64,000 bases of DNA. It comes from a virus (Duplodnaviria > Caudoviricetes). The notes beneath the pieces were generated by a model, which saw only the letters and a program-made list of their open reading frames with translations, was not told the DNA's origin and searched no databases. The stretch is taken from the IMG/VR virus record IMGVR_UViG_2654588115_000002, positions 3,472-67,471 of that record; one strand, 5' to 3'. Both the position numbers and the translations under genes were made by a program. Positions 18,101 to 55,693 of the stretch are shown here, piece after piece; the stretch's first letter is position 1; each line of letters opens with the position of its first letter.

Positions 18101-20943
18101 TCAAGGGCGATGTTATCAGCAAACGCCTGCTGGGTGCAGTGGGCGAGTCTGTTACCATGAATGAGGACGGTTCAGATGTAGACGATTATATCTATACGCA
18201 GGAAGAGGGGGCTAATGTACTTACTGTTGATGGTGCTGTGGCTACCAGCGACGAATCTGACCTCATTTACATCAAGCTGTATGGTGATGCAAAATTCCTC
18301 AACAAGAATGATACTCTGCAAACCATGTCCTTTATTGCAAACTCACCTTATAGCCTGGCTATTTCCGGCGATATGACGGTAACGGCTGAATCCGGTATCC
18401 GGCTGGCGAGTGAATCTATCCAGATACAGGATAACTTGTGGGCCAATAATCCAAATGCTTCGATTGAATTGGCCAGTGCTGGCGGCGAAATGAATATTTC
18501 CGGCAATTTGCGGGCAGGCAAGGATGTTATCTTGAAGAGTGCCCAGAATATTGTCATCGGTACGGATGATAAGACCGTTTCAGTAACTGCCGATAATGGC
18601 AGTGTGAAACTGCTGGCTGGCAATTTTGATGGCCGCTATGGTGCACAAGGTGAATGGGTAAGTGCCAATCCTGTGATTAACGGCATAGATCTGACCAATA
18701 CGGCCATAGCTGCTGGTGAAAATATCATCGTAAAAGGTGGCGCGGTTAATTTCACGGGTGTTAATGAACTGGCTGGCGATGCTTCTGTTTTGGCGGGGAA
18801 TGCGGTACTCAGCGGTACGGTCAGTGGTGGTGAAAACACACTGACCATGACTGCGGATAATATCGTGGTCGAAAGCGGTACGCTACTGACTATGCACGAA
18901 TTTGCAACGCGGCAGGGCAATTTCACCTTGGAGTCTGCGGCACAGATAACGGCTGATGAAACAGACTTGCAGGGTGAAACTATCAGCCTGGCCAATAATT
19001 CCCTGGTGGTTAGTGATGCAGTCAAGGTAAAGGCAGAGAATGCTGAATTGGCTGGCCTCATCTATACGGATAAGCTGACCGCTAAAGCCGATAATACGCT
19101 GACGGTGACGGAGACTGTGAAAAATAAGGCTGGCACAGATGATACGATTGTCGAACTGGAAGGCCGTAACGTGACCTTTGTTGGCAGCAGCTTTAAGACG
19201 CTGACGGTTAAAGGCACGGAGAGCATCACGCTGGATGAGGGAGACTTGTACGGCGAGGATGACATTGCCCTGACTACCAAAAATCTGACGGTAGCGACCA
19301 ATATTACCACCACAAATGGCGATATTAATCTTACGGGTACAGAGAATCTTCGGGTAACAGGCAGTTTGACGGCTGGTCAGCAGATTGGCCTCAATGGCAA
19401 GAATATACAGCTTAGTGGTGCGAAACTTAATAATGGTGCAAATGCCAAAACTACCGTTGCTGGTGAAAGCGCAGTTATCACCGGAACGATTACTACGGAC
19501 ACGGGGGCTGATTTGTCGGTTAAGGCACAGAATGTAATAGTGGGTGACTCTGGTATTACCAACATTGCCGTGAGTAAGTTTACGGTTGAAGGTGTGGAAC
19601 AGGCTAAGTTTATCAACACAAACTTCCAGGCGGATACTACGGTGAAAGGTAAGGCCGCAGTCTTGACCGGCAATATTGATGCCACGGGTTATGAACTGAC
19701 CCTGCAGTCAACGAATGTAACCATCGGCGATGGCCAGACGGCTACCGTAATGACCGCGAAATCCCTGGCTGACGCGGATAATCTTACCATTGACCAGGCG
19801 GTTCTGAACCTTGATTCCTACAAGCTGCAGGCAGGTAAGGCTATTACCCTGAAGAATGAGGTAACTGCTGAAGGGCAGGCTTTGGAACTGGCAGCACCTG
19901 ATGCCAGCATTGGCGATGGTTCAGCCAATACGGTCATTAAGGCAGGTTCCGTATCGGCCACGGACAAACTGCTGGTGGATAAGGCGGTGCTCGCTGTAAA
20001 TGATGGTACTTTGCAGGCCCAGCAGATTATCCTGCGAGGGAATGTAACTGCAGATAATCTTGACTTGACTTTGCAGGCACCTGAGGCGGCTATCGGTGAT
20101 GGCATTGTTGATACCGTGATTACGGCCCGTTCTGTAATGGGAACGGAGGATTTGCTCATCGACAAAGCCAGCTTCGCGGTCACGAATCCTATAATTGCAA
20201 CTGCAGGGAATCTCACCTTGCAACATGAGATTGTGGCGGGAGATACGGTTGGCTTCCAGGCAGGAAAAGCTATTACCATGCAGGATATGTCCATGGATAA
20301 GTCCACGGATGTCAGCTTTGAAGGCAAGCTCATTGATATGCGCGACAGTTCTATCAATGCCGGGAAGGACGGAAAACTATTCTTCGCTGCCTATAGCGTT
20401 AAGACTGAATCGCCATTGAGCTATGCCTTCCAACCGGATAATGAAGTCATCATTGACAATTCACGTCTGGATGCTGGTGAGATGACCATGCTGGGGTATT
20501 CCATTATTGCCCGGAATGGCTCTGAGATTTACGCAGACAAGACACTGGATGCTTTGGCGGCTAAAAAAGTTGCTATGGGCAAGCTGGGAAATCTGGAAAT
20601 AGTCTCGCAGGCAACCCTGAGCACTGAGCCGCAGAATAAGCTCTTGCAACAGGATGCGATTATTGAGGTTGGCGGCAGGGCTTATCATAACTTCCGCTTT
20701 ATCCCTGCTTCGGCGTACCAGTCAGATACCATTATGCGCTATCTGGAATCTGTGAATGATATGACCTGGCAGATAGGTTTCAATAGTTCGCCATTGTCGA
20801 TTATCGGGATTCCTGGTCTTAGCTTGTATCGTTTCCAGTATCGAGATGGAATATCCGAGGCAATTTCAGGACTGGAGATGTATTTTACAGTGGACTCCCA
20901 TGAAGGAGAGGAGAGAGAAGAAAAGGAAAAGACAAATGGGTGA
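6103..20943 (+). CDS. TpsA filamentous-haemagglutinin-like adhesin (4946 aa)
   Basis: Signal peptide; TPS domain 'IDWTTFDIG...ILNRV...LANPNGITVG'; very long G/A/T/N/S-rich beta-helical repeats. Confidence 0.92.
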   Translation: MKRNCQQKLKYTSLAAMIAFTLSTGLVYGADMPVDGKVVAGKVTIDGTEYIPAVGDNPAVLINPLTGKTLVVTGNSVIDWTTFDIGSGKSLTFEGQGSNYILNRVPWNNAASEIYGILNTQNIHFILANPNGITVGNGAQLNVIDGGSILLAAMGAGFNNANNSITLQNYNYGDRSSINIGGIEAVNGNVALMAKTINVADGITFSGDTALKLLAGKTSYNQSITVTPGEGVDSIGSSGSITFNGSLVDDSHKVNLGVSADSITMSAGKKIALTGTDSAVNINTSRLQNADITGPVVTLVRDGAITVSDSKLTSTVGDVKVLSGTLSEDGKTLSNTTVTNNNYIVNHKVTMNNSSVISADDAIIAAAAVDISGKKAGESAAIAAVNDVFIASGKNVPLQSGSLTTDAGMNTSVTVSNAEIQGRNLTLAGNDVTVTSSSELTATNDMQIVAAPDITISGGKVVSGQNSTTSNGGVEITDSVLQGKNISLTGIAVTANGTIGNASTENVHLLAGRDFNFSADSMTRGMTANVTGGTITGHDILAEGATVEVANGAAIHAVSAVENEETVAGKVRLLAGSGVTNGVVTATSGNKATVKGTLSGGDIVVAGGAVDVDGGMVNAGTNSAWLLAGNSIKTTAAMGSADADGVITSAEGNAVTIKKGATVSADKVHIAGYSADLSSATNNSSITAATEINAVTGSTINNNAGTLVREANAARGRFSRDTASVVTVNGSASSAMIDMPTDGKVISGSVSYKGNSYDASSNYYFNLASGDTIMANSHSIINWNTFDIGLSGVLNFDTTNGALLNRVTGSYASWLKGTLNHTGTYPLLLVNPQGIHVYQGATINGANLILSGLDMTDTALSNFSTAGAVAYDTASTGDVNLESGITFSNEAEKLALAGRNVTVAQNTIKAESLKADATNTATLTNLTYTGALEGNSVLDSAGGSLTLSGGSYTGNTNLKGTTVNMAVTSHTGNVTVQGTTVGINGGTYTGDLTLAGTSVSVSGVAFDGEDKAHNLTLSGLGENGAVTVSNSTVTGADDVVLTGKTVNVSQSGNTRADWTAETFTLGKGESASNTTGITNINLTVTKADTTPTVGNDVALTLNNAAISAPQINLTPASLTLSGGSSLISDTTVDIAAAGSVTVQGGSEVTAETGDLNVTAAEALTVKGGTTLEAKTGNLTAKGASVAIGVANDTENTIKADAGNITIKAGVDDGRTDANTVNIQNTDLTANAAGKSITVTGYSVDAAGDLHTKTANMSGNSVNTAGTTAADTVNITGTASASASGTITAGTVNMSGADSVSASGNITADTLNITGISATGSLTVGGVVNVANALTLQGGSSGGAVINGAITAPSITISAQDVTFSGANVTAATGDVSVTGKTIRTNESYYTSSAINSENGDVLLISGTNTAGVYTTTEGGSISADKMNITGNTVTALARTTSIENGTIHADNMQIAAANTVNGSTWAAGFGDTDNPNNLTLTNTTVLSKNGEGAIENVKLAGSNVTFGGGGTDAQAFKANSLAVASDQSITVASGQVNVTGAEGISLSGKSITVDGTIQARQINLTATENDATLNSGSALNTTGEDATNAISITANNGNINANGSLTADDSITMNAKTDIATDGTITAATVGMTAENDIGTAGTITADSVSLAAGNDINSAADITASTITMDGGDGKAISATGALNAAGGTITLGHAPSDEPAKAGTKTVTIGPAAGANKAVQAQTVNVQATDTIGLSRVTMETADSLNLASKEVSITGSSVTTEGSLTLNGTEDAANPSVSITGSTLAGTAINATGKGISVGSSDLTATTGGIAVNSTGENDIAVTNTALKAEHATNGNISINSGKAIQAIGGSMTAGKDISLAAIAAKGGEDSDAAYAIKASANMTAGNDIGLTATAGEVYSAGSLTATSGSITMDSTDSSKISMTGDLAAASGTVTLGHADGEHKTGIVEINSGTSDKGIKATTLLVNATEEIGIQSAAIDVNSALHLGSKKVSVASSNIATDGALTLASSNSAAAITGSTLEGTSATVSGKGISVSDSTITAATGGIGVTSTGENDITIYRTVFNATNETNGNIAIASEKAVQATGGEMSAGKDIVITASNDSDAIAISTATPMSAGENVRLLADSGYVSSSGNMIVGKSIKLQTGAGDITSFSNMRITAGTGGTIDLISGNGSKVWTRGGLSVENGTINLGRASAGDVAGTKTVEIDNNHINAQTLYAWATDNIDLKDAEVNVTDDLSLSSKKIFSANSRVAVSEGVITVNGTEQGESPSVNISNSSLRGTSVAVAGKGVRGELARFYATAGGIDIESTGENKVYLANGTMEATDADSGIIDIASEGAIEVWGGSYSAGKDISIAADNEGVQVYSGGMESNGRIDIQAAAGDIALTGPYEANEYVVAAEKGNIRFSIGTVNASSIEMTAGSEGNTGKTISLGNEVSMNAVDKVELVASEGIINAAGNIAVQEDNEKSGEVVLTANTVSLGADDSRTANNRKISTKDLTVTASEAINLQKIKIETEEDLLLASAETQITDSILTTTGGNLTVKSTGTDITVDKSTITGNSVAINGKGIQVGQAEMENNNSTITANTGDVTLTTDTNIAVNNANITAKGKADLVAATGINVADTGVTATDKGISIESTAADSDVTLTSVTLNAENATAGNITVQTGNAIGVTGGSMIAGKDITLKAENAGITVSGATFTTTAGNGGNIDLLAGSEGTNGWSAIENNALGLTNITLNADGAVTGKSGKTDIATSSITAGGNVNVTTVGTDGDASHVNVDKSTIEGAGVAISGKGIKVDQKDGISDNTSTIMANTGDVTFTTDTNIAVSKATITAKGKADFVAATGINVADTGVTATDKGISITSTAADSDVTLTSVTLKAENTANGNITVQTGNAIGVTGSSITAGKNITLKAENAGITVSDAALTTIAGNGGNIDLLAGSEGTNSWSATENNALGLTNITLNAAGAVTGKSGKTDIATSSITAGGNVNVTAVGTDGDASHVNVDKSTIAGAGVAISGKGIKVDKKEGISENTSTITANTGDVALTTDTDIAVSKATITAKGKADLVAVNGIDVADTSVAATDKGIAITSTAADSDVTLSSVTLKAENTANGNITVQTGNAIGVTGSSMTAGKNITLKAENAGITVASVALTTKAGNGGNIDLLAGSVDGTGWSATENNALGLTNVTLSGAGAVTGKSGKTDIATSSITAGGNVNVTAVGTDGDASHVNVDKSTIAGAGVAISGKGIKVDQAEMENNNSTITANTGDVTLTTDTNIAVNNANITAKGKADLVAATGINVANTSVTATDKGITIISTSDGKDLILTNTTLSATNATNGSITVRAKNAVNTKGSSLTAGDGLTINAENAANELESSTLQGKNVNISGVGITVSKSEGTGAAAPSVTATAGNVALNSTAGIGVSDASITANTGGISVISTDANSDVTLTNAAMTAGAAIEINSGKALNVSEGSMTADNNIGLVAASAVEVGNSKLQGKNVSISGKGITISDDDAATPTIKATAGGVTLTSTGDGNDVTLTNITVGANGDIAINAADAITTKGSDLTAGNDFTIGAGTGTNKFESSTLQGKNVNISGVGITVSKSEENGAAAPSVTATAGSVALNSTAGIGVSDASITATNDIGIEAVTAVGFENNKLQGKNVSISGKGITVSDNDAVTPTIKATAGGVTLTSTGDGNDVTLTGATLKADNTTSGNITITSARAIEATGGSMTAGENINLAATSSDGTAGAKAVNSSSDMTAGGNVRVASVSGDVVSSGNVAAANITIDGDNVSATGSLDAENGTITLGHAEGTGNVVIGEAADAAKVVKAANLNVHATDSIATRNANIAVANNVALASEAISLDGTALTTGGSLDIKGDTIAINASTLRTTNTSNGHINLLAGNADGADWSAGDGNTLALTNTDVSAAGDVSFRAGQITINADAENAPVKEIRGNNLLLAAAKSYDAENHEYTMESGQTISVTNTNLTGSDSITLLGYKTNIKGDVISKRLLGAVGESVTMNEDGSDVDDYIYTQEEGANVLTVDGAVATSDESDLIYIKLYGDAKFLNKNDTLQTMSFIANSPYSLAISGDMTVTAESGIRLASESIQIQDNLWANNPNASIELASAGGEMNISGNLRAGKDVILKSAQNIVIGTDDKTVSVTADNGSVKLLAGNFDGRYGAQGEWVSANPVINGIDLTNTAIAAGENIIVKGGAVNFTGVNELAGDASVLAGNAVLSGTVSGGENTLTMTADNIVVESGTLLTMHEFATRQGNFTLESAAQITADETDLQGETISLANNSLVVSDAVKVKAENAELAGLIYTDKLTAKADNTLTVTETVKNKAGTDDTIVELEGRNVTFVGSSFKTLTVKGTESITLDEGDLYGEDDIALTTKNLTVATNITTTNGDINLTGTENLRVTGSLTAGQQIGLNGKNIQLSGAKLNNGANAKTTVAGESAVITGTITTDTGADLSVKAQNVIVGDSGITNIAVSKFTVEGVEQAKFINTNFQADTTVKGKAAVLTGNIDATGYELTLQSTNVTIGDGQTATVMTAKSLADADNLTIDQAVLNLDSYKLQAGKAITLKNEVTAEGQALELAAPDASIGDGSANTVIKAGSVSATDKLLVDKAVLAVNDGTLQAQQIILRGNVTADNLDLTLQAPEAAIGDGIVDTVITARSVMGTEDLLIDKASFAVTNPIIATAGNLTLQHEIVAGDTVGFQAGKAITMQDMSMDKSTDVSFEGKLIDMRDSSINAGKDGKLFFAAYSVKTESPLSYAFQPDNEVIIDNSRLDAGEMTMLGYSIIARNGSEIYADKTLDALAAKKVAMGKLGNLEIVSQATLSTEPQNKLLQQDAIIEVGGRAYHNFRFIPASAYQSDTIMRYLESVNDMTWQIGFNSSPLSIIGIPGLSLYRFQYRDGISEAISGLEMYFTVDSHEGEEREEKEKTNG
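13760..16040 (+). repeat. about 3.4 tandem copies of a 675-678 nt (225-226 aa) unit inside TpsA
   Basis: Marker GCCGCGACTGGAATTAATGTGGCA and a variant recur at 13951, 14629, 15307 and 15982. Confidence 0.9.
16150..17200 (+). repeat. second duplicated block inside TpsA (first part offset 624 nt)
   Basis: TTGCAGGGCAAGAATGTCAACATTAGCGGCGTTGGCATTACCGTGAGCAAGAGCGAAG occurs at 16231 and 16855; GGCAAGAACGTCTCAATCAGCGGCAAGGGCATAACG also occurs twice. Confidence 0.85.
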
Positions 20944-21510: not shown

Positions 21511-21703
21511 GCCTGAGTTGCAATAGGGCAAAGGATATTCTTATAGACTGAAATTGATTTTATGAAATCGGTTTCAGTCATTCGGAGTACCCTCTCCTTA
21601 TTGCGCCCGTTTTGCTTGAGTACATTTTGGTCTGTGGACTTCGAAAGGTTCACAGGCCTTTTTTCTGTGTCCTTTGCCCAGCTTCAGGGGAAAGGACAGA
21701 ATC
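21511..21703 (+). promoter_or_regulatory. structured 5' leader (terminator hairpin plus anti-SD switch) of the sigma-like gene
   Basis: Hairpins at 21546-21579 and 21629-21658 (+T-run); TGTCCTTTGCCC 21668-21679 is complementary to both 21526-21537 and the SD region 21687-21698. Confidence 0.6.
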
Positions 21704-22183
21704 ATGAAAATCACAATGTACTACGAGGATAAGAACCATCCTACCATCCTGGATGTCCCGGATGAGGAATGCTCTGTAATGGTGGAGACGGATTACCAGC
21801 AGAGACTGGCAGAGGCTGAAGACAAATATAAGGTCAGCAGGCGTACCGTTCAGGAAATTATGGATGAGGATTTCAGCAAGCCCACATTCAATCGGAATCA
21901 TGCAGAGACGCGCCGTCATGTTTTGCTGTCTGCCTATGATCCTGAGGGGCAGTCTGTTGAGGGAATGCCGGATATTCAGTCCGAGTTGTTGGATAAAGAT
22001 GAATATGCAGATTTATACCATGCCATACAAAAGCTGCGCCCCAGGCAGAGAGAGCTTCTGCGCAAGGTGTTTTGGGAGGAAATTCGACAGACGGATATTG
22101 CCAAAGAAGAGGGCGTGGGAAAATCTGCTATCAGCCAGAGGCTGACCACCATCTGTAATCGGTTGAGAAAATTTCTGTCCTGA
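21704..22183 (+). CDS. phage sigma-70 region-4-like transcription factor
   Basis: C-terminal 'AIQKLRPRQRELLRKVFWEEIRQTDIAKEEGVGKSAISQRL' HTH; AAAGGA RBS. Confidence 0.8.
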   Translation: MKITMYYEDKNHPTILDVPDEECSVMVETDYQQRLAEAEDKYKVSRRTVQEIMDEDFSKPTFNRNHAETRRHVLLSAYDPEGQSVEGMPDIQSELLDKDEYADLYHAIQKLRPRQRELLRKVFWEEIRQTDIAKEEGVGKSAISQRLTTICNRLRKFLS

Positions 22184-28708: not shown

Positions 28709-29182
28709 GTGGAGGCGATACTCGTGAATATTATCTGGCAGTATCTTGATAAGCGTGGCGCTGCAATAAAGGCCGTCAAGGATTACAGCAGTATGCAATA
28801 CATCCTCGAACATACCGAAGAGGAAATCGCCGGAGCCAAGGAACGTCAGGTGGGGCTACGTGCCAGTCAGTTGGATGGAATGCCCAAGAGCCATAATCCT
28901 GCTGCGGCGGAGAATCGTATGGTGAACGCCATTGAGGAAATCAATGTGCTGAAGGAGCGCTATCGGCAGGCAGTTGAGTACATGGGATGGTTTGAGCCAG
29001 CATGGAAGGAGCTATCCGGTGATGAACGATTTTTGTTGGAGGAGTTTTACCAGAATGATTACAGTGACCAGAGCAGTGCCGTGCTGAATATCTGTGATCA
29101 CTTTGGCATTGAACGCACCTCGGCTTACAATCGCAAGAACCGTGCGTTGGAACACCTGACCATATTGCTTTACGGCAAATGA
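28709..29182 (+). CDS. late-gene transcriptional activator (ArpU/RinA-like)
   Basis: Position before HNH/terminase; C-terminal HTH 'ICDHFGIERTSAYNRKNRAL'; start uncertain. Confidence 0.65.
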   Translation: MEAILVNIIWQYLDKRGAAIKAVKDYSSMQYILEHTEEEIAGAKERQVGLRASQLDGMPKSHNPAAAENRMVNAIEEINVLKERYRQAVEYMGWFEPAWKELSGDERFLLEEFYQNDYSDQSSAVLNICDHFGIERTSAYNRKNRALEHLTILLYGK

Positions 29183-29294
29183 GGAATATCGCGGATGAAA
29201 TTCAGTGAAAAAGGTGATATGATAATAGCATAAAGAATTGCCTCTGAGGGAACATAAACCTCAGGGGCATTTTTATTGGACGGAGATGAATGCA

Positions 29295-29660: not shown

Positions 29661-29933
29661 TCAAAATAGGTCTGAATGTGTACCTGTGCGAGATGCTGTG
29701 AGAATTAATTGACCTTGGTCGATTGCATAAATTAATAGCCAATCGGGCTGGATGTGGCATTCGCGGAACCCAATGTAGTCACCAACTAAGGCATGGTCGC
29801 GGTACTTATCGTCTAAAGGGACTTCATTTTGTAGTGTCTTTAAAACATCATCAAGTAAGGTGAGGTTGTACCCCCGTTTACGAATTCGCTTTAAGTCTTT
29901 TTTGAACTGACTGGTGATTACTAAGTCAAGCAT
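29661..29933 (-). CDS. yafQ: YafQ-family mRNA interferase toxin
   Basis: 'FKKDLK', 'YRDHAL.GDY.GFRECHIQPDWLLIY', 'RTGTHSDLF'. Confidence 0.92.
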   Translation of the reverse strand: MLDLVITSQFKKDLKRIRKRGYNLTLLDDVLKTLQNEVPLDDKYRDHALVGDYIGFRECHIQPDWLLIYAIDQGQLILTASRTGTHSDLF

Positions 29934-30219
29934 GGGTATCCTCCGCATCCATGTCGCTTAGTATGCTGGACAAAGAGTCATAGCGCTTGGCTTCTACTTT
30001 ACCAGCCATGATGTCCCTGGCTTCTTGCATAGCCTGAAGAGTGGCACGGTTGTATTTAGGTTTGCGCGGTTGGAAGGGAAAGCCACCTTCCATGATAGAT
30101 GCGTGAAGAAAGACATTTATAGCATCCGTTACAGAGATGCCAAAACTAGAAAATACTGCTTCAGCCTGAGCTTTAATATTGGGTTCAATACGAAGATTGA
30201 TATTTGCTGTTTTAGCCAT
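29926..30219 (-). CDS. dinJ: RelB/DinJ-family antitoxin
   Basis: 'KTANINLRIEPNIKAQAEAVF...GISVTDAINVFL...GGFPF'; overlaps the toxin start; GGAGG RBS. Confidence 0.88.
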   Translation of the reverse strand: MAKTANINLRIEPNIKAQAEAVFSSFGISVTDAINVFLHASIMEGGFPFQPRKPKYNRATLQAMQEARDIMAGKVEAKRYDSLSSILSDMDAEDTHA

Positions 30220-30238
30220 GGGAATCCCTCCTTTACTT

Positions 30239-30274
30239 AGTATTGTAACGCAAAAGTTAAACAAATGCAATACT
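30239..30274 (-). promoter_or_regulatory. TA promoter with overlapping inverted-repeat operator
   Basis: Minus strand TTGCAT-17-TACAAT inside the inverted repeat AGTATTGT / GCAATACT. Confidence 0.7.
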
Positions 30275-32346: not shown

Positions 32347-32901
32347 ATGCGTGTATTTCTGAACCCTGGCCATGCACCTTGCGGCTGTCCAGACCCCGGT
32401 GCAGTCAATAGTGGTACCGGCTTGCGTGAGTGTGACGTAGCCAAGAACATTGCCGACCTGGTGGAGAAATATCTCACGAAGGTCGGCGTTTCTGTTTCCG
32501 GCAATCTGCAGTCGGATGATTTGTTCGAGGTAGTCAGCTCGTCCAATAATCTTGATGCGGATGTGTTTGTATCAATCCATTGCAATGCCTTCAATGGCGT
32601 AGCGCAAGGAACAGAGGTCTGGCACTATCACACCAGCAAGTATGGCAAGCAACTGGCAGAGTGCATTCAGCGTCAGATTGTAGGGGCAATGGGAACAGTC
32701 GACCGTGGCGTTAAAGGAGCTGAGCCCGGCAGAAATGGCCTGTATGTATTAACCAATACGGATGCGGTTTCCGTGCTGGTGGAGACGGCCTTTATCGACA
32801 ATGCCGAAGATGAAGTCCTTCTTCGGACCAAGCAGGTCGAGTTTGCCCGTGCGATTGCCCGCGGCATCACAGATTTTGAGCAGGAGACATTGAATCGATA
32901 G
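32347..32901 (+). CDS. N-acetylmuramoyl-L-alanine amidase (Amidase_3), catalytic domain only
   Basis: 'VFLNPGH', 'DPGAV', 'FVSIHCNA', 'VLVETAFIDN'. Confidence 0.9.
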   Translation: MRVFLNPGHAPCGCPDPGAVNSGTGLRECDVAKNIADLVEKYLTKVGVSVSGNLQSDDLFEVVSSSNNLDADVFVSIHCNAFNGVAQGTEVWHYHTSKYGKQLAECIQRQIVGAMGTVDRGVKGAEPGRNGLYVLTNTDAVSVLVETAFIDNAEDEVLLRTKQVEFARAIARGITDFEQETLNR

Positions 32902-32904
32902 ATT

Positions 32905-32982
32905 GTATACAACACAAACAGCTTGCTATTTCCAGTGCGTAGAGGGAATATGTGACTACCAAAAGAAAAGGAGGAGCTGAAA
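32905..32982 (+). promoter_or_regulatory. cassette leader, degenerate copy A
   Basis: GTATAC...CTTGCTAT...AGAGGGAATAT...TACC...AAGGAGG. Confidence 0.6.
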
Positions 32983-33717
32983 ATGGAAGTCAAGTACAAT
33001 GTCAGCGGTGAACGCCGCAAGGAAATGGTGAAGGTAGTCAGCGAAGCCCTGGAAGGCTGGGAAATCAAGTATCTGGGAGCACCGAGCTTTTCCTACCAGG
33101 TGGGGGATTTCGAGATTACCAAAGATGGGACCTTGGTTTTCTCCGACAGCACCGACAGCAAGATGGTGGAAGATGTCCTCGAAGGGCTGGAGCAGTCTGG
33201 TTTTGAATGCGAATCCCATGAGGATTTGCCGGAGAAGAAGGAATCGGATAAGGAAGAAGAAACTGCCGCCATTACGGAGGAAGAGCCAGTGAGCCTATCT
33301 ATCAGCATGCCGAAAGATTCCTTTACGGATGTCGCTTTGGAGAATCTCGACCATCTGTTGGTGAGCAAGGGCAGCCTGATCAAGAAGGCATTTGCCATCG
33401 AAGAAGCCACCTACACCCTTACCGATGACCGCATCACATTTGCATGGCTGCATGGCGAAATTACGCCGGAGAAAGCCAAGGCTGGGCAGGATTTCATCGG
33501 CAAGCTCTGCGAGATGGCAAGGACGCAGAAACGCGTCACTGCCAAGGCAAAGGCGGTGGACAACGAGAAATACGCCTTCCGGTGTTTCCTCCTTCGCTTG
33601 GGGCTGATTGGAGCCGAATACAAGACCACGAGGAAAATCCTCATGGAGAATCTCTCCGGCAATGCCAGCTTCAAGTCCGGCAAGAAAAAGGAGGCTGAGC
33701 ATGAAACTTCCGAGTAA
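32983..33717 (+). CDS. conserved prophage protein ('virulence-related' annotation family)
   Basis: 'YLGAPSFSYQVG', 'NEKYAFRCFLLRLGLIGAEYK..RKILMENLSGNASFK'. Confidence 0.7.
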   Translation: MEVKYNVSGERRKEMVKVVSEALEGWEIKYLGAPSFSYQVGDFEITKDGTLVFSDSTDSKMVEDVLEGLEQSGFECESHEDLPEKKESDKEEETAAITEEEPVSLSISMPKDSFTDVALENLDHLLVSKGSLIKKAFAIEEATYTLTDDRITFAWLHGEITPEKAKAGQDFIGKLCEMARTQKRVTAKAKAVDNEKYAFRCFLLRLGLIGAEYKTTRKILMENLSGNASFKSGKKKEAEHETSE

Positions 33718-33946
33718 GGAAAAACTGGAATACTTGCGGAGCTTTTATGCACGGGGACGGATTGTGGTGCTTGGGGAAATGAAAGATGCCCAGGCACCGC
33801 CTCCGGGCACCTATGGCGAAATCCAGGGAGTAGATGATGCGGGCAATATTCTGGTTCGCTGGGACAACGGTTCCTGCCTGAGTCTCATTCTGGATGTGGA
33901 TACCTTCTTCATCGTAAAACACCGCCCAGAAGACATAGGAAAATAA
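33701..33946 (+). CDS. DUF4314-like small phage protein
   Basis: 'MKDAQAPPPGTYG...VDDAGNILVRWDNGSCLSL'; AAGGAGG RBS. Confidence 0.75.
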   Translation: MKLPSKEKLEYLRSFYARGRIVVLGEMKDAQAPPPGTYGEIQGVDDAGNILVRWDNGSCLSLILDVDTFFIVKHRPEDIGK

Positions 33947-33953
33947 TCAGTAA

Positions 33954-34058
33954 GTATACACAGAAATTATTCCTAATTTGCTTGCTATAAATCGTGGTTA
34001 GAGCGAATATACACATACCAAAAGGGAACAACCTAGACAAGCAAAGGAGGAAAAACAA
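33954..34058 (+). promoter_or_regulatory. cassette leader, copy B
   Basis: GTATACACA-CTTGCTATAA-TTAGAGCGAATATACACATACC-CAAGCAAAGGAGG. Confidence 0.8.
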
Positions 34059-34496
34059 ATGACAAATGCATTTGCAGAGGATTGGGCAAGGGAGCAGGCC
34101 TTCCGAAAAGCCTACGCAGAGGCGAAGACCGAAGAATCCAAGCAGGAGGTTAGGGAAGCCCACAAGGCATTCGATGAGAGCATCGAGGAAAAGGGGATGG
34201 CCTACGCAAGGTACTTCAGGGAATACGAAGAAGCACAAATGAGGGGCAACGCCTGCATCGACTTCAACGACTGCATTTGGGAAAAGGACATCCCAAAGAT
34301 GGTCGCAGACCTCCGGGCTCTCGGAATCAAGGAATTCACGCTTTCCTCAACTTTCTCAAGCATTGTAAAGACCGCCTGGGTTTTCCAGCAGAACGGTTGC
34401 AGCCTTGAAGGGATGGAGGAAATCAAAGGGCGCTGCAAAGCCTTCCTGAGCGAGGATTACGAAAAGGTTCCGGCCTTCAAATTCAAGATAAGCTGA
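34059..34496 (+). CDS. cassette hypothetical protein (145 aa)
   Basis: Strong RBS, own leader, terminator 34515-34538 (GGAGCC-GCAA-GGCTCC). Confidence 0.8.
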   Translation: MTNAFAEDWAREQAFRKAYAEAKTEESKQEVREAHKAFDESIEEKGMAYARYFREYEEAQMRGNACIDFNDCIWEKDIPKMVADLRALGIKEFTLSSTFSSIVKTAWVFQQNGCSLEGMEEIKGRCKAFLSEDYEKVPAFKFKIS

Positions 34497-34540
34497 AAAC
34501 TACGCAAAATGCCCAAGGGAGCCGCAAGGCTCCTTTTGAT

Positions 34541-34643
34541 GTATACACAGAATTAATCCGAAATTCGCTTGCTATAATTTGCGTTTAGAGCGAACATACA
34601 CATACCGAAAGAGAACATCGAGCAAGCAAAGGAGGATGCAACC
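34541..34643 (+). promoter_or_regulatory. cassette leader, copy C
   Basis: GTATACACA-CTTGCTATAAT-TTAGAGCGAACATACACATACCGAAAG-GAGCAAGCAAAGGAGG. Confidence 0.8.
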
Positions 34644-34868
34644 ATGTGGAGCAAAGGCGAAATCGAGATTGAAGGGATCAAGGTTCGGTACTGGGTAAAA
34701 CACTACGAGGAAGGTTCAGAATTTGGAATTGACGGCGGCAGAATTTCCAAGCTGGAATGCCGGGTAAACGGAAAAACAATCCTTCATTACGAGAGGGGAT
34801 GGAACATGGAACCGGAAACGAAAATTGGTTACCAAGCCTACGCAATCCTGATGGGAAAGTTCAACTAA
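34644..34868 (+). CDS. cassette hypothetical protein (74 aa)
   Basis: 'YWVKHYEEGSEFGIDGGRISKL...YERGW'; terminator 34885-34906 (GCAGCCC-TTCG-GGGCTGT). Confidence 0.8.
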   Translation: MWSKGEIEIEGIKVRYWVKHYEEGSEFGIDGGRISKLECRVNGKTILHYERGWNMEPETKIGYQAYAILMGKFN

Positions 34869-34914
34869 GACCGGCATTAAAGCCAGCAGCCCTTCGGGGC
34901 TGTTTCTTGTTGAA

Positions 34915-35016
34915 GTATACACAAAATTTATCCGAAAATCACTTGCTATAATTCGCGATTAGAGCGAATATACACATACCGAAAGGAACACCGAGCAAGC
35001 GAAGGAGGAAAAGAAA
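34915..35016 (+). promoter_or_regulatory. cassette leader, copy D
   Basis: GTATACACA-CTTGCTATAAT-TTAGAGCGAATATACACATACCGAAAGG-GAGCAAGCGAAGGAGG. Confidence 0.8.
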
Positions 35017-35199
35017 ATGAAGACGATTTACAAACTCGATGGAAAGAAAATCAGCAAGAAGGCCCTGGTCGAGAAGATGGGAGCAGAGCAGGTCAAGCGG
35101 ATGACCAAAGAAGCATGGGAAACCACCATGGAAGACCCTTGCATTTGCAACGACTTCTGGACGGGGAACGGGATGCTGAACATTTCCTTCGAGGGATAA
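35017..35199 (+). CDS. cassette hypothetical protein (60 aa)
   Basis: Strong RBS; terminator 35202-35228 (GGAGCC-GAAA-GGCTCC). Confidence 0.75.
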   Translation: MKTIYKLDGKKISKKALVEKMGAEQVKRMTKEAWETTMEDPCICNDFWTGNGMLNISFEG

Positions 35200-35244
35200 G
35201 GAAGGGGGAGCCGAAAGGCTCCTTTTTCTGTAGGGGGTGATTGA

Positions 35245-36846
35245 TTGCGAAAACTTACCGGCTATAAGCCGACTGAATTTATGGCGAAGGATTCCCACTA
35301 CGACAAAGGGGCTGCAGATTTTGCTGTGGCTTTTATTGAGAGCCTTTGCCACACCAAGGGCACTTGGGCGGGAAAGCCTTTCGAGCTGATTGATTGGCAG
35401 GAACGAATCATCCGTGACCTTTTCGGCATCCTTAAGAAAAACGGCTACCGCCAGTTCAACACCGCCTACGTGGAAATCCCCAAGAAGCAGGGCAAAAGCG
35501 AACTGGCAGCGGCTGTGGCGCTCCTGCTTTGCTGTGGCGATGGGGAGGAGCGGGCGGAGGTTTACGGCTGCGCTGCCGACCGCCAGCAGGCATCCATCGT
35601 TTTCGAGGTGGCAGCTGACATGGTGCGGATGTGCCCTGCCCTCAACAAGAGGGTGAAAATCCTCGCCTCCCAGAAACGGATGGTTTTTCAGCCCACCAAC
35701 AGCTTCTACCAGGTACTCTCCGCCGAGGCTTACTCGAAACACGGCTTCAATATACACGGCGTGGTCTTTGACGAACTGCACACCCAGCCCAACAGGAAAC
35801 TATTTGATGTCATGACCAAGGGCTCCGGCGATGCACGAATGCAGCCACTGTATTTTCTGATTACCACAGCGGGGACCGATACTCAGTCCATTTGCTACGA
35901 GACGCATCAGAAGGCCTTAGACATTCTGGAAGGGCGCAAAATTGACCATACATTCTACCCAGTGATTTATGGAGCAAAAGAAGACGAGGACTGGACTTCG
36001 CCGGAGGTCTGGAAGAAGGCCAATCCATCCCTGGGAATCACTGTGGGGCTGGATAAGGTACAAGTCGCCTGCGACTCGGCAAAGCAGAATCCAGGGGAGG
36101 AGAACTCTTTCCGACAGCTCCGTTTGAATCAATGGGTAAAGCAATCCATCCGTTGGATGCCGATGCACAAGTGGGATGCCTGTGCCTTTCCAGTTTCGGA
36201 AGATGAATTGGAAGGGCGTGTCTGCTACGGCGGGTTAGACCTTTCCAGTACCACGGACATTACGGCTTTTGTGCTGGTGTTCCCGCCGATAGAAGAAAAC
36301 GACAAATACATGGTGCTACCGTATTTCTGGATTCCGGAGGATAATGTGGATTTGCGAGTACGTCGCGATCATGTGCCCTACGATGTCTGGCAGCGGCAGG
36401 GTAAGCTGGAAACCACTGAGGGTAACGTTGTGCATTACGGTTATATCGAGAAATTCATCGAGCGGCTGGGGGAACGGTTCAATATCCGGGAGATTGCCTT
36501 TGACCGCTGGGGAGCAGTGCAGATGGTGCAGAATCTGGAGGGGATGGGATTCACCGTGGTGCCCTTCGGACAGGGCTTTGCGTCCATGTCACCACCCACC
36601 AAAGAACTGATGAAGCTAGTGCTGGAGGAGCGGATAGCCCATGGTGGTCATCCGGTGCTGCGGTGGAACATGGATAATATCTTCATCCGTACCGACCCGG
36701 CTGGGAACATCAAGGCTGACAAAGCAAAAAGCACGGAGAAGATTGATGGAGCGATTGCCCTCATCATGGCTCTTGACCGTGCTATTCGTTGTGGAAATGA
36801 CGCTGGGGAAAGCGTGTATGACAGCCGGGGATTGATAGTTTTTTAG
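35245..36846 (+). CDS. terminase large subunit
   Basis: 'EIPKKQGKSE' Walker A, 'VVFDELH', 'GGLDLSSTTD', 'KIDG'. Confidence 0.95.
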   Translation: MRKLTGYKPTEFMAKDSHYDKGAADFAVAFIESLCHTKGTWAGKPFELIDWQERIIRDLFGILKKNGYRQFNTAYVEIPKKQGKSELAAAVALLLCCGDGEERAEVYGCAADRQQASIVFEVAADMVRMCPALNKRVKILASQKRMVFQPTNSFYQVLSAEAYSKHGFNIHGVVFDELHTQPNRKLFDVMTKGSGDARMQPLYFLITTAGTDTQSICYETHQKALDILEGRKIDHTFYPVIYGAKEDEDWTSPEVWKKANPSLGITVGLDKVQVACDSAKQNPGEENSFRQLRLNQWVKQSIRWMPMHKWDACAFPVSEDELEGRVCYGGLDLSSTTDITAFVLVFPPIEENDKYMVLPYFWIPEDNVDLRVRRDHVPYDVWQRQGKLETTEGNVVHYGYIEKFIERLGERFNIREIAFDRWGAVQMVQNLEGMGFTVVPFGQGFASMSPPTKELMKLVLEERIAHGGHPVLRWNMDNIFIRTDPAGNIKADKAKSTEKIDGAIALIMALDRAIRCGNDAGESVYDSRGLIVF

Positions 36847-36852
36847 GCGATT

Positions 36853-36958
36853 GTATACACAAATAACATCGAATTATGACTTGCTATTTCCTCCATAAAG
36901 AGCGAATATACACATACCGAAAGGGAAAACACAGACGACCGAAAAGGAGGAAAACAAA
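36853..36958 (+). promoter_or_regulatory. cassette leader, copy E
   Basis: GTATACACA-CTTGCTAT-AGAGCGAATATACACATACCGAAAGG-AAAGGAGG. Confidence 0.8.
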
Positions 36959-37285
36959 ATGACCAAACAGGAAATCGCCGAGATTATCGAGAGCAAGGGC
37001 AAAGAGTACGGATTCAAGATGAAGGACATGGGGGTGGCTTGGACGAGCGAACAGACCAGCGAAAGCAACATCCGCATCGAACTTTTCAAGGAAACCGACT
37101 ACGACAACACCAGCTGGGAAGACCGCAGGGTAGCGATAAACCTCAAGGTCACCGGGTGCATTTGCCGGATGGGCGACCGCAGGGAGGCGGCAGACCTTCA
37201 GAAAATCGCCGAGGAGATTGCAAGGGGCACCAAGATGGTAGCCGAACTTGAGAAGATGAACCTTTCCTACATCGAAACATTCTAA
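36959..37285 (+). CDS. cassette hypothetical protein (108 aa)
   Basis: Strong RBS; bidirectional-looking terminator 37298-37329 (AAAAGCACCGCTC-GAAA-GGGCGGTGCTTTT). Confidence 0.8.
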   Translation: MTKQEIAEIIESKGKEYGFKMKDMGVAWTSEQTSESNIRIELFKETDYDNTSWEDRRVAINLKVTGCICRMGDRREAADLQKIAEEIARGTKMVAELEKMNLSYIETF

Positions 37286-37350
37286 GCCAAAATCGAACAA
37301 AAGCACCGCTCGAAAGGGCGGTGCTTTTGTAACTATAGTATATTGAAAAA

Positions 37351-39216
37351 TCACCATTTAAACATATCTAATAAATCGAAAACAATTTTATTGGTACGCT
37401 GTTGGATTTTATCTACTGTCCATGTATCTTCACTTACAATATCTGTGTTAAGATATAGGCCGTTTTTATAGCCAATATTTTTTGTTTTATCCTTTGATTT
37501 ACGATTTTTCTTTTGCTCAAAAGACATATTGGAAAGATTTTGATTATAACCTGTAACGGTAAGGTTGCCAAGGGTATGGACATACTCAACTCGATATTTA
37601 TGTGCAAGCTCCTTATCCCCATTTGCAATCATGTCTACCCATGTTTGTGGAATGTTTTCGCCCTCTGGGAAAATGTGCTCGATTGTCCATATGTATTTCC
37701 TGCTATTGTCTCTTGACCATAAGTCTGAGTAGATTTCTTTTGTTTGATGGAGAGATTCTATGCTACACAAGAGAAAACGTGTAGCTTCTGGATTCTCATC
37801 GTAAATTGCCCCTCGAAGCTTGTTTTCAAAAATATCATCTTCTGCAGAGATGTTCTTAAGATGCTTACATATTTCATTAGTTATATTGTTGCCTTTTAGT
37901 TCTTTTATTATGGCTATTAAATCAATGAAAAACTGAGTTAATTTACGGGTGTTCGGAATATCAGTAATATTACGACGCACAAAGAATGTGATTAATAGTT
38001 TGATTATATCTTTTATGTTACTATCGGAGAGAGCCATATCCTCCTGTCGAGAGATAATGTACATAAGCATAAGATAGGAAGGGGCGCCAGATATTCTTCC
38101 TAAATCCAGTAAATCATCCGAATAAGATTTCATATCATCGCTGTTGTTTACGAGAATAGAATAGACCTGAGATTTTTTCAATAAATCATTTATGAGAGTT
38201 TTGTAATTTTTCTTTATCATTTTCTCGTAAATGTCCAGTAAGGTGGTTCTGGTAGCTAAATATCCAAAAGCATACCGTTGCTTATCAGAAACTGTATTCG
38301 ATTCGTTTAATTCATCTCTAAAAGCATTGTAATATTGGCGAAAAAAACGTTCTTGTACGGAATAATCATCCTGACTAATGTTGGTTAAAATCTGTTTCCA
38401 TATTTCGTAGCAGTTATCTGCTTCTAAATCTTTTTCAGCGTAAGCAATCATTGTGTTTTTTATGAGGTCAAGAGCAGATAGAGGAACTCCTCTATGGTTA
38501 AGCGACTCGAACAACATATATGCATCTTTGTTGCTATCAACCTCAATTCCTACAAGCACGGCCGCTTCAAATTTGTTTACAATGCCTAACAATATGCTAA
38601 TATCGTTAGCGGAGGATGTTTGTGCTTTTGTTTCCTCGATTTTTTCGTCAATAAGTTTGTTGAAATGTTGGTATGCTTTCGCAATCCTACGTCTGCTAAA
38701 ATATGCTGGCTTTGGATACTTAGTCGTAATAATGCTGGCATTTGATAAGATGTATAAAAAATCATCATTATTCATGTTTTGTTTTTGAAGATATAGTCGC
38801 GGATAATAGTCTGTTTTCTTTTTTCCATCGGGTAGGTGTGTTTGCTGTTTTTCAGCCAATTCATTTTTTAAATTGACCCATTCATTAAGTTCGTCATCAT
38901 CCATTTTCGATTTGAGATTAGACAACTTTTCATATAGGGATGTTAGCAGAATAATCAATGTAGAAAACCGTTGTTGACCATCAATTAGTTCCAATGTATT
39001 GTCATTACTATTTCCATTATCTACACAGATATATGAGCCAAGAAAATATCCGGAGTCATTCTCAGTTACGTCGTTGAATAAAGCATTCCAATCGTTGATG
39101 CTCCAAGTATATTCTCTTTGGTACTTGGGAATACGATAATTTTTTCCATTCTTGATGGAGAAGATATCTGCTACCGTTGTTTGACCTACTTTTTTTATCA
39201 ACCCAATTACCCCCAA
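37351..39216 (-). CDS. GmrSD-like restriction protein (DUF262 + DUF1524/HNH)
   Basis: 'IPKYQREYTW', 'IDGQQR', 'FESLNHRGVPL', 'TIEHIFP', 'LGNLT...N..LSN'; AT-rich and antisense to phage genes; true start may be a few codons downstream. Confidence 0.88.
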   Translation of the reverse strand: MGVIGLIKKVGQTTVADIFSIKNGKNYRIPKYQREYTWSINDWNALFNDVTENDSGYFLGSYICVDNGNSNDNTLELIDGQQRFSTLIILLTSLYEKLSNLKSKMDDDELNEWVNLKNELAEKQQTHLPDGKKKTDYYPRLYLQKQNMNNDDFLYILSNASIITTKYPKPAYFSRRRIAKAYQHFNKLIDEKIEETKAQTSSANDISILLGIVNKFEAAVLVGIEVDSNKDAYMLFESLNHRGVPLSALDLIKNTMIAYAEKDLEADNCYEIWKQILTNISQDDYSVQERFFRQYYNAFRDELNESNTVSDKQRYAFGYLATRTTLLDIYEKMIKKNYKTLINDLLKKSQVYSILVNNSDDMKSYSDDLLDLGRISGAPSYLMLMYIISRQEDMALSDSNIKDIIKLLITFFVRRNITDIPNTRKLTQFFIDLIAIIKELKGNNITNEICKHLKNISAEDDIFENKLRGAIYDENPEATRFLLCSIESLHQTKEIYSDLWSRDNSRKYIWTIEHIFPEGENIPQTWVDMIANGDKELAHKYRVEYVHTLGNLTVTGYNQNLSNMSFEQKKNRKSKDKTKNIGYKNGLYLNTDIVSEDTWTVDKIQQRTNKIVFDLLDMFKW

Positions 39217-53327: not shown

Positions 53328-53453
53328 GGAGGTGCTTATTGTAGCAGTCTCACAAGGAAAAGAAAAAGCGACGAATGGAAGATTGGAAGTGGTGGGGGAT
53401 CGATAAGAATTGTTACAAGTTTAGCTTTGTAATCTTTTGAGGAGAAAATTATC

Positions 53454-53690
53454 ATGCAGGTAAGCCAAATAGTGAAAGGTCATTTAACAAAGAAAATAGA
53501 AAAACCAACAAATCAAGAAATGCAGAATGAATATAATTATCTATTAGCAGAACAGTTGACTGAAAAGTTGCTAGTAAAAGGGCTAATCACAGAAGAGGAA
53601 TTTGAGAAGGTTATGGTAAAAAATCGACAATCGTTCTCGCCATTTATTTCAAAGATAACGTCTAAAAACTTGCATTTTAGGTGGAGGTGA
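53454..53690 (+). CDS. SHOCT-like small protein preceding the recombinases
   Basis: 'LLVKGLITEEEFEK'; GAGGAG RBS. Confidence 0.7.
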   Translation: MQVSQIVKGHLTKKIEKPTNQEMQNEYNYLLAEQLTEKLLVKGLITEEEFEKVMVKNRQSFSPFISKITSKNLHFRWR

Positions 53691-53726
53691 GTGATATATA
53701 GTATCAAACGTAAATGGGGTGAGACA

Positions 53727-55268: not shown

Positions 55269-55270
55269 AC

Positions 55271-55693
55271 ATGAAACATACACCATATGGATATGACATT
55301 GTTGGAGGAAAGGCAGTAATTAATGAAGATGAAGCATCTAATGTTCGGAAAATATGTGAAAATTACCTAAAAGGAATGTCTTTTGTAAAGGCCGCAGCTA
55401 GTGTGGGGCTAAATATGCGCCATCGCACAGTCAAACAAATTGTACAGAATAGAAGATTGCTTGGTGATGATTTTTATCCAGCAATACTTTCGGAAAATAC
55501 GGCTACACTGATTGAGAAAGAACGTATTCGTCGGGTGAAAGCTATGGGGCGAGATAAAAGAATATATAAAAAAAACGAAGCCGTTAAGGTGAAAACAGAT
55601 TTTACTGTCCCTAAAGTACCGGTTAAATATCAAAATCCTATCAAGCAAGCTGAGTATGCATATAGCTTGATTCAAAGCGAGGTAGACAGATGA
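55271..55693 (+). CDS. short recombinase-domain protein
   Basis: '[20 protein letters not shown]', 'LGDDFYPAI'; no catalytic domain. Confidence 0.75.

Follow-up and report, generated by a model that had tools for sequence, protein, structure and literature searches.

A repeated leader in front of an exchangeable array of accessory genes around terL in a temperate HK97-type siphovirus

Why should one and the same non-coding sequence stand in front of several different genes in the late region of a temperate phage, on both sides of the gene for the large terminase subunit (terL)? The question is raised by a stretch of 64,000 nucleotides (nt), here called the window, which covers positions 3,472 to 67,471 of the IMG/VR virus record IMGVR_UViG_2654588115_000002 (Duplodnaviria; Caudoviricetes). 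A preliminary description of this DNA, made from its letters alone, had noted four close copies and one degenerate copy of a leader, and had proposed that they mark an exchangeable, co-regulated set of anti-defence genes. We find that the repeated leader is real and confirmed, that a co-regulated and exchangeable array of morons is supported, and that the anti-defence role of the genes and the operator role of a box in the leader are unproven.

Morons are reportedly known from lambdoid and HK97-like phages, as extra genes of the late operon that have their own promoter and factor-independent terminator and are present or absent among relatives. The reading that we favour, with a probability of roughly 0.65, is that the array consists of such morons and that they share a lineage-wide promoter of the sigma-70 type with an unusual -10 region.

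The leader in the window and in its relatives

All five copies of the leader are on the plus strand and fall within 32905-36958 (Table 1); four are near-identical and the first is divergent. Their alignment has 125 columns, of which 41 are invariant, and a mean column identity of 73%. The 20-nt core, AGAGCGAATATACACATACC, occurs four times at no more than one mismatch, as against no occurrence in 100 shuffles, and a profile built from relatives finds exactly five sites in the window (E = 4e-18, 9e-18, 4e-17, 2e-16 and 1.4e-4) and no sixth, its next match having E = 1.8. The pattern of box plus AGAG is met at zero mismatch only at 32922, 33981, 34568, 34942 and 36880. Alignment, core count and profile thus bear out the number of copies first given. 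The word "degenerate" was apt for the copy at 32905 only insofar as its upstream part is shortened, which is its main difference; all of the conserved blocks, namely the box, the N11 spacer, AGAG and GAATAT, are retained.

The boxes within the leader call for a similar distinction, since they had been said to occur twice per leader. The upstream one, GTATACACA, is exact in the four close copies and confined to them. The second, at one mismatch (ATATACACA at 34007, 34968 and 36906, replaced by ACATACACA in the leader at 34541), is merely a part of the universal core. Taken alone, the box 9-mer does not exceed chance, with 15 matches against 9.4 expected. The arrangement of TTGCTA, 17 bp and GAATAT is present in the window copies as described, and so is the additional TATAAT-type sequence in two of them (TGCTATAAT in the leaders at 34541 and 34915), the leader at 33954 having TGCTATAAA at that place.

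Regarding relatives, an 18-nt piece of the core has an exact match in 97 IMG/VR stretches, and over these (858 kb) the leader profile recovers 216 copies; the loci were retrieved by the motif itself, so that counts made on them are associations and not prevalences. The leader core can be written as CTTGCTAT-N11-AGAG(C/T)GA(A/T)..AT, followed by a short 5' untranslated region (UTR), a Shine-Dalgarno sequence (SD) and ATG. Divergent copies have two fixed blocks, (A)CTTGCTAT and, 11 bases on, TT(T/C)AGAG(C/T)GA(A/T)..AT, while the 3' parts, ..AC.TACC and then (G/A)AAAG, are conserved more weakly. An SD and an open reading frame (ORF) in the same orientation lie 10-50 nt downstream of 210 of the 216 copies.

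The pattern of box, 11-nt gap and core start is also present in at least 120 stretches of species genomes. Among the matches listed, the hosts are mostly Bacillota, with some Actinomycetota. They comprise Clostridia, as well as Desulfotomaculum, Pelotomaculum, Syntrophomonas and Acholeplasma-like organisms; the Negativicutes Acidaminococcus, Veillonella, Selenomonas, Anaerovibrio and Pectinatus; the Bacilli Heyndrickxia, Tepidibacillus, Alkalibacterium, Ligilactobacillus, Gemella and others; and a few Actinomycetota (Trueperella, Gardnerella and a metagenome-assembled genome of the Coriobacteriales). Three further contigs on this list, binned as Bacteroidales, Parabacteroides and Arcobacteraceae, may be mis-binned. 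Of 50,697 GenBank phage records, 44 have the leader, among them those of streptococcal Javan phages and of Erysipelothrix phi1605; of 72,556 plasmid records, only 3 do. Its site is nearly always the hotspot between terS and terL of HK97-type prophages. In Streptococcus phage Javan105 (L222, 6993-7049), the final 30 nt of a gene for a DNA-cytosine methyltransferase contain the box and spacer of the leader, and the gene behind that leader is annotated as a "virulence-related protein".

The cassettes, their genes and their exchange

Each of the four close leaders is followed by an SD and a single ORF, and each ORF is closed by a strong hairpin with a U-tract. As first described, these are small ORFs with tetraloop terminators, the loops being GCAA, UUCG, GAAA and GAAA, and the resulting autonomous single-gene units do break up the run of packaging and late genes to either side of terL. 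The leader at 32905 heads a two-gene unit, the gene for the 244-aa protein and the DUF4314 gene that overlaps it, which has no terminator of its own. In the relatives, a terminator-like hairpin lies within 75 nt of the stop codon in 120 of 205 cassettes, compared with 22 of 205 random windows.

The genes that follow the leader were expected to form an open-ended set, and instead they are drawn from a small recurrent pool. In the viral loci, the complete ORFs behind leaders number 208 and fall into 32 clusters, the top three of which hold 125 ORFs: DUF7678 (50 copies), the 244-aa family together with amidoligases (45 copies) and DUF7698 (30 copies). Then come the 91-aa and 108-aa families with 14 copies each and the 60-aa family with 7. 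The pool thus consists of the 244-aa "virulence protein" family with its amidoligase operon, DUF7698, DUF7678, unnamed proteins of 60-108 aa and, sometimes, serine recombinases.

The species genomes allow the same association to be counted gene by gene; the stretches listed hold 153 leaders, 54 of which have no assignable ORF of at least 70 aa. The 244-aa family has the leader in 58 of 84 cases and is the commonest leader-driven gene in relatives, followed by DUF7698 (9/9), large serine recombinases (6/21) and DUF7678 (5/18). The leader is never found in front of ParB-methylases (0/64), terL (0/37), terS (0/32), DUF4314 (0/32), portal (0/23) or HNH (0/22). In five other prophages (L138, L147, L153, L184 and L201) it stands in front of a large serine recombinase gene; those of the window, two tandem genes at 53691-55268 and ~55705-57264 with a conserved ORF of the 70-aa class on their 5' side (region 53448-57264), have none.

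The arrays also differ from phage to phage. In 30 mapped loci the backbone, where L> marks a gene with a leader, is HNH, terS, ParB-methylase, L>244aa, DUF4314, L>DUF7698, L>DUF7678, terL, (L>108aa) and portal. Each of the 30 carries from one to seven cassettes, whose number, order and family all vary; such variation in content and order had been named beforehand as the outcome that would support an exchangeable system. With the flanking genes unchanged, L034 and L015 lack the DUF7698 cassette, and L100 has extra cassettes of 69-70 aa. The window loses collinearity with its relatives at 34539-34541 (a leader start), at 34000/34005 (a core) and at 35020/35021 (an ATG). These breakpoints fit the earlier suggestion that the leader may serve as recombination homology, and they are compatible with ordinary homologous recombination.

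The part of the leader that lies upstream of the box differs between lineages. Its 56 nt have a mean identity of 0.474 between different genes of one phage, compared with 0.329 between unrelated leaders. The GTATAC box is on all leaders in 28 loci, on none in 66 and mixed in 2, and because it is all-or-none in nearly all loci the upstream TATACACA box is a feature of the lineage, and not, as had been supposed, a part of the element. Either a role as operator for a lineage-specific factor or concerted evolution could account for it. A general rule by which the upstream box copies the core was considered and rejected: the longest word shared between a leader's upstream region and its own core is barely above that of permuted pairs (direct, 5.32 against 5.16; inverted, 5.02 against 4.95), and the difference in duplex energy is 2.2 standard deviations (sd).

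Table 1. Leaders, genes and terminators of the array (window positions; dG, predicted free energy; pLDDT, predicted local distance difference test score of the AlphaFold model)
Feature	Position	Strand	Details
Leader copy 1, divergent, short upstream part	32905..32982	+	box CTTGCTAT 32922-32929, N11, AGAG, GGAATAT, SD; profile E = 1.4e-4
244-aa protein, "virulence protein" family, often adjoining or fused with amidoligase	32983..33717	+	phrog_2443, 9e-63; no Pfam match
DUF4314 gene, overlaps end of the 244-aa gene, no own leader	33701..33946	+	PF14192, 9e-23
Leader copy 2	33954..34058	+	GTATACACA at 33954, box 33981-33988, core 34000-34019
DUF7698 protein, 145 aa	34059..34496	+	PF24753, 1e-28; model pLDDT 92
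Intrinsic terminator, DUF7698 cassette	34515..34540	+	GCAA loop, dG -16 kcal/mol
Leader copy 3	34541..34643	+	box 34568-34575, core 34587-34606
DUF7678 protein, 74 aa	34644..34868	+	PF24726, 3.5e-29
Intrinsic terminator, DUF7678 cassette	34885..34914	+	UUCG loop, dG -18 kcal/mol
Leader copy 4	34915..35016	+	box 34942-34949, core 34961-34980
60-aa protein, no family match	35017..35199	+	7 homologues behind leaders
Intrinsic terminator, 60-aa cassette	35200..35229	+	GAAA loop, dG -20.3 kcal/mol; end 16 nt 5' of terL start codon
Large terminase subunit (terL), no leader, no room for own promoter	35245..36846	+	family matches
Leader copy 5	36853..36958	+	box 36880-36887, core 36899-36918
108-aa protein, no family match	36959..37285	+	model pLDDT 93.4
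Bidirectional terminator common to the 108-aa cassette and the convergent GmrSD gene	37297..37330	.	GAAA loop, dG -26.7 kcal/mol

What the leader may do

In the reading that we favour, each repeat would be a module of promoter and 5' UTR, by which the gene behind it becomes an autonomous unit closed by its own intrinsic terminator. The 5' part of the module would consist of an A-rich stretch, the -35-like box CTTGCTAT and the fixed 11-bp spacer, after which AGAG(C/T)GA(A/T)..AT would supply a -10-like hexamer 17-18 bp from TTGCTA. The probable start of transcription would be near ACATACC, behind which a small GNRA hairpin is often found, with SD and ATG 10-50 nt further on. The terminators would keep the transcripts of the cassettes from entering terL and portal, and the conserved leaders would also supply the homology for gain, loss and reshuffling of cassettes. 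Such a promoter class would be reserved for the accessory pool, to which some phages add the serine integrase, and would never serve packaging, structural or methylase genes.

Several features of the leader are consistent with this architecture. Among 37 diverse leaders the box varies as TTGCTA, TTGATA and TGGATA, in the manner of a -35 hexamer (TTGCTA has 4 of the 6 consensus bases), and the -10 block always ends in AT, either at 17 bp (GAATAT, TAATAT, GATTAT) or at 18 bp (ATATAT, ATTAAT, ATGTAT). The spacing between box and AGAG is constant also in the loci that were retrieved by the core alone. In the window, the terminators end 33-36 nt upstream of the box. In addition, on one 45,162-bp contig (L160/L030, ~L160:6104-6273) a pair of leaders on opposite strands is arranged back to back, like a divergent promoter pair, with only ~42 nt of AT-rich sequence between the boxes, which leaves no room for further promoters upstream. 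Promoter activity, start site and timing of expression are all inferred here from sequence, and we likewise infer that the conserved 12-15 bp around the -10 are read either by host sigma-A alone or by sigma-A together with a phage or host factor.

Other observations weigh against a promoter of this kind. By canonical sigma-70/sigma-A criteria (at least 4 of 6 bases in each hexamer, TTGACA and TATAAT, with A2 and T6 in the second, and a spacer of 16-18 bp), a scan of the window returns 18 promoter-like sites, none of them in any of the five leaders: GAATAT has A2 and T6 and yet only 3 of the 6 bases of TATAAT, and in the commoner T-variant of the leader no hexamer has both key positions. Around the -10, 12-15 bp are near-invariant across host phyla, far beyond the need of an ordinary sigma-A promoter. 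The leader is, moreover, present in only 30 of 58 distinct upstream regions when DUF7678 is sampled starting from the protein, the gene lying directly behind another gene in the other 28, and it has to be kept in mind that all loci, viral and from species genomes, were retrieved by the motif. Finally, the complementarity of the N11 spacer is greater towards the pre-SD region of its own leader than towards non-cognate regions, with duplex energies of -6.97 and -5.95 kcal/mol, respectively, a difference of ~11 sd of the permuted means; -10 kcal/mol or below is reached in 20% of leaders, compared with 8.6%. This complementarity is unexpected for a spacer that is not transcribed and is unexplained by the promoter model. 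If the effect is real, the spacer could act as an anti-SD that silences translation only on read-through transcripts.

The role proposed at the outset, that of an immediate-early establishment regulon whose anti-restriction, anti-CRISPR or anti-abortive-infection cassettes are strongly expressed as the phage enters and turned off afterwards by a protein that binds the TATACACA box, is one that we can entertain only tentatively. Small ORFs that have a promoter-like leader and a terminator of their own inside a late region, and whose content varies between relatives, are what such a regulon would look like; the lineage-specific upstream box, common to all leaders of a phage, behaves as an operator would, and the leaders in front of serine recombinases fit expression at establishment. 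The hotspot also adjoins DNA methylases and, in relatives, a gene for S-adenosylmethionine (SAM) synthetase, and this neighbourhood, together with the leader shared with integrase genes, supports an anti-defence role loosely. Direct support did not emerge from the proteins themselves. In Pfam, PHROGs and NCBIfam, which are general libraries, none of them specific to anti-defence, the cassette proteins match no named anti-defence family, only DUFs (DUF7698, DUF7678) or nothing, and a look-up in a protein atlas returned only automatic names ("virulence protein" for the 244-aa family; DUF7678). The two high-confidence AlphaFold models, of the DUF7698 and 108-aa proteins, have no fold match in the PDB at E <= 1e-3 by Foldseek, the best E values being 3.8e-3 (Alba-like, template-modelling score 0.34) and 0.23. 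The cassette proteins are only mildly acidic, with isoelectric points of 4.9-7.7, unlike DNA mimics. Scans with Pfam and NCBIfam found no helix-turn-helix (HTH) family among the six leader-driven proteins, so that the array has no Aca-like autorepressor gene, and the gene pool is small and conserved, not a fast-turning arsenal.

A broader proposal goes beyond the favoured reading and is, as a whole, rather unlikely. It holds that the leader is an ancient, lineage-wide and dedicated promoter class of a very widespread group of gut and environmental prophages, and that it defines a separate temporal regulon, accessory or for establishment, of the integrase and a fixed toolkit of small proteins, possibly for counter-defence or host takeover. 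Its reader could be encoded by the phage and redirect host RNA polymerase, or it could be a protein conserved among the hosts; the lineage operator GTATACAC would give an immunity-like specificity, and the spacer would act as an anti-SD that silences translation of read-through transcripts.

The pairing of spacer and SD leads to another candidate, in which the conserved block is a cis-regulatory RNA. Transcription would then start at or upstream of the box, and the conserved 20-25 nt would remain unpaired in the transcript, as an operator to which a protein or an RNA binds. A variable stem would enclose this operator and cover the SD with its 3' arm, and in this way the cassettes would all be switched at once at the level of translation. 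The complementarity beyond permuted controls speaks for it, as do at least five predicted pairs between the 5' arm and the post-core sequence in 174 of 270 leaders and pairing of the SD region with the 5' arm in 161 of 270. In copy 5 of the window the spacer TTTCCTCC (36887-36894) is complementary to the SD GGAGGAAA (36946-36953), there are apparent compensatory pairs in L013, L022 and L023, and an RNA operator would agree well with a conservation so extreme among hosts of different phyla. A conserved fold is nevertheless absent: RNAalifold finds 0 consensus pairs in the 37 diverse leaders, and Rfam has no match in the window at its gathering score and, under permissive settings for 32800-37400, only three chance-level matches on the minus strand. 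Strong complementarity is, as the percentages above show, confined to a minority of leaders, and the mean z-score against shuffling of the 5' arm is only -0.8. The short distances from terminator to box and between back-to-back leaders leave little room for a promoter upstream, and the box varies like a -35 hexamer at a fixed distance from the core, which makes an RNA element improbable. Spacer/SD complementarity can be seen in loci such as L157, L126, L107, L013 and L023.

Who might read the leader was also considered. A 169-aa protein with a sigma-70 region-4 domain is encoded at 21674-22183, at the left edge of the early region of the phage; as a general reader of the motif it was rejected, since only 4 of 38 leader-bearing records encode a homologue, including 3 of the 16 records with a completeness of 90% or more. 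Sites of host alternative sigma factors and of the LexA, NrdR and sigma-54 types and similar sites were set aside, as their generally known consensus sequences appear not to fit in spacing or half-sites.

A profile of the DUF1492-like regulator, by contrast with the sigma region-4 protein, matches in 30 of the 38 leader-bearing IMG/VR records and in 15 of the 16 at least 90% complete. DUF1492 is the LtrB family of late activators, and the Ltr proteins resemble sigma region 4 and bind repeats upstream of terS, as stated in excerpts of PMC3753634. The leaders could then be additional late promoters that need the LtrB activator of the phage, and the cassettes would be expressed late, with packaging and morphogenesis. 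This proposition is improbable. Its appeal is that sigma region 4 is the region that reads -35 elements (same excerpts) and that the -35-like box of the leader is unusually long and invariant. The regulator is, however, a core gene of the lineage, so that common descent confounds the co-occurrence, and one complete leader-bearing record (G026) has no regulator match. The regulators diverge, with 15-19% identity to the protein of the window, while the box is invariant; the region from the regulator to HNH and terS has neither box nor core; and the leader never precedes terS or HNH in the species genomes.

That the repeats are mere recombination linkers, left by and used for the shuffling of cassettes and with no regulatory role, is very improbable, for although breakpoints do fall at leader edges and in the core and the upstream 56 nt are more alike within one phage than between phages, the blocks are base-exact at fixed spacing across host phyla while the sequence between them varies freely, 210 of 216 copies keep to a strict orientation and distance relative to SD and ATG, and the element stands only before certain gene families.

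Prophage context, late transcription and known systems

To the right of ~21.6 kb, the DNA of the window is that of a temperate HK97-type siphovirus. The left part of the phage encodes the sigma region-4 protein, Gp157, AAA_24, a helicase, a primase, RusA, the DUF1492-like regulator and HNH, followed by RelB on the opposite strand, terS, the ParB-methylase, an amidase, the array, terL and one further cassette. After this last cassette come a low-GC GmrSD gene on the opposite strand, portal, and genes that align to the ClpP-protease and major-capsid clusters of relatives. The RelB-type antitoxin gene (29926-30270, minus strand) lies between HNH and terS, and a toxin partner for it may be encoded just downstream on that strand. 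Near the right end of the prophage, M78 (IrrE-like) peptidase and Fic domains are fused in one ORF of 453 aa (57746-59107).

At the left of the window, a gene for an outer-membrane transporter of the ShlB/FhaC type (4596-6071) is followed by a repetitive ORF of 4946 aa (6103-20943), and the two look like a two-partner secretion pair on host DNA. Because of this pair, the IMG/VR "provirus" seems to take in ~21 kb of the chromosome of a diderm host, which probably belongs to the Negativicutes.

The terL region of the window has 73-77% DNA identity to "NatCom" gut phages, including NatCom_991, an annotated example of Ca. Heliusvirales, in which membership is defined by TerL similarity and nine marker genes (excerpts of PMC11283538). 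In the window, TerL, portal and helicase are found, the protease and capsid genes align to the clusters of relatives, and DNA polymerase I was not seen among the window ORFs scanned.

The array has consequences for late transcription. Since terL and portal lie behind terminators and have no room for promoters of their own, the late transcript must read through, as had been anticipated. The type IV restriction gene GmrSD (37351-39216, minus strand; GC content 0.34-0.40, compared with ~0.51 for the phage) lies convergent between the 108-aa cassette and portal, and its start codon is 19 nt from that of portal, so that the transcript must also run antisense through it; its path thus holds four terminators and the antisense GmrSD gene. 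The late transcript would start upstream of HNH and terS under an activator of the LtrB (DUF1492) type. The DUF1492/LtrB-like gene (28709-29182) is followed by a promoter-like site with TG (29195-29223), a U-tract hairpin with a dG of -22.9 and then HNH, and the layout of 28709-29290 recalls the ltr-terminator-terS promoter regions of Gram-positive phages.

Among known systems, morons are the closest in kind, with the difference that here several stand in tandem, all under one conserved, lineage-wide leader, and that their base composition is not distinct, the GC content of the cassettes (0.46-0.53) being like that of the flanking kilobases (~0.50-0.53). The conserved upstream (CUP) repeats in the leading region of IncN plasmids (pKM101/R46), with which the leader had been compared, likewise stand before different small genes and define a co-regulated set. 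The analogy does not extend to distribution, as the counts of plasmid and phage records make plain, and the present element belongs to a phage, with no leading-region context and no known repressor. Anti-CRISPR operons repressed by Aca proteins and embedded in structural gene clusters of phages are similar in that small accessory genes lie in the late region, here with a putative promoter of their own that would uncouple them from the late genes, and different in that the array has no HTH gene of the Aca kind and no inhibitor homology or fold match, and that its leader is conserved over a far greater phylogenetic distance. The promoter classes of T7- and T4-type phages, whose near-identical promoters are read by a phage-directed polymerase or factor, likewise have many copies and a conservation beyond the host consensus, and they define a temporal class, as the leader may do; the phages considered here, in contrast, are temperate siphoviruses without a polymerase of their own or a co-occurring dedicated sigma factor, and the leader serves accessory genes only. 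Integron cassettes also form tandem single-gene arrays of variable content and order with a repeated element in between, whereas the repeat considered here is 5' of the gene, carries an SD and promoter-like boxes and is not an imperfect palindrome (0 consensus pairs). Finally, in Ltr-controlled late operons, as covered in excerpts of Quiles-Puchalt et al. 2013 (PMC3753634), a single late transcript from packaging through lysis is expected as it is here, whereas the leaders stand apart from the late promoter region, have no sequence in common with it and interrupt the operon with terminators.

A description of the leader motif was not found in the literature searched, which did not extend to supplements, where tables of promoters or annotations may be given. 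Full-text searches with leader sequence strings gave only unrelated eukaryotic or primer matches among the matches listed, a literature search on DUF4314, DUF7678 and DUF7698 found no papers, and the word "promoter" is absent from the accessible portions of the Heliusvirales paper (PMC11283538) and of the hotspot preprint (bioRxiv 10.1101/2024.10.15.618418).

The leader-bearing phages are members of, or similar to, a prophage lineage that ranks among the most widespread in gut Bacillota, and hardly any of their accessory genes has an assigned function. One non-coding signature of 35-45 nt marks a co-regulated gene set across hundreds of phages and more than 100 host species, and it offers a cheap computational handle for cataloguing the accessory toolkit of these phages as well as a defined DNA probe for its regulator. 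It also gives a concrete test of when the "virulence protein"/amidoligase operon, DUF7698, DUF7678 and the other products are made, a first step towards their function. Moreover, that essential late genes such as terL and portal can sit behind several strong terminators makes read-through in Ltr-controlled phages of Gram-positive bacteria a testable matter.

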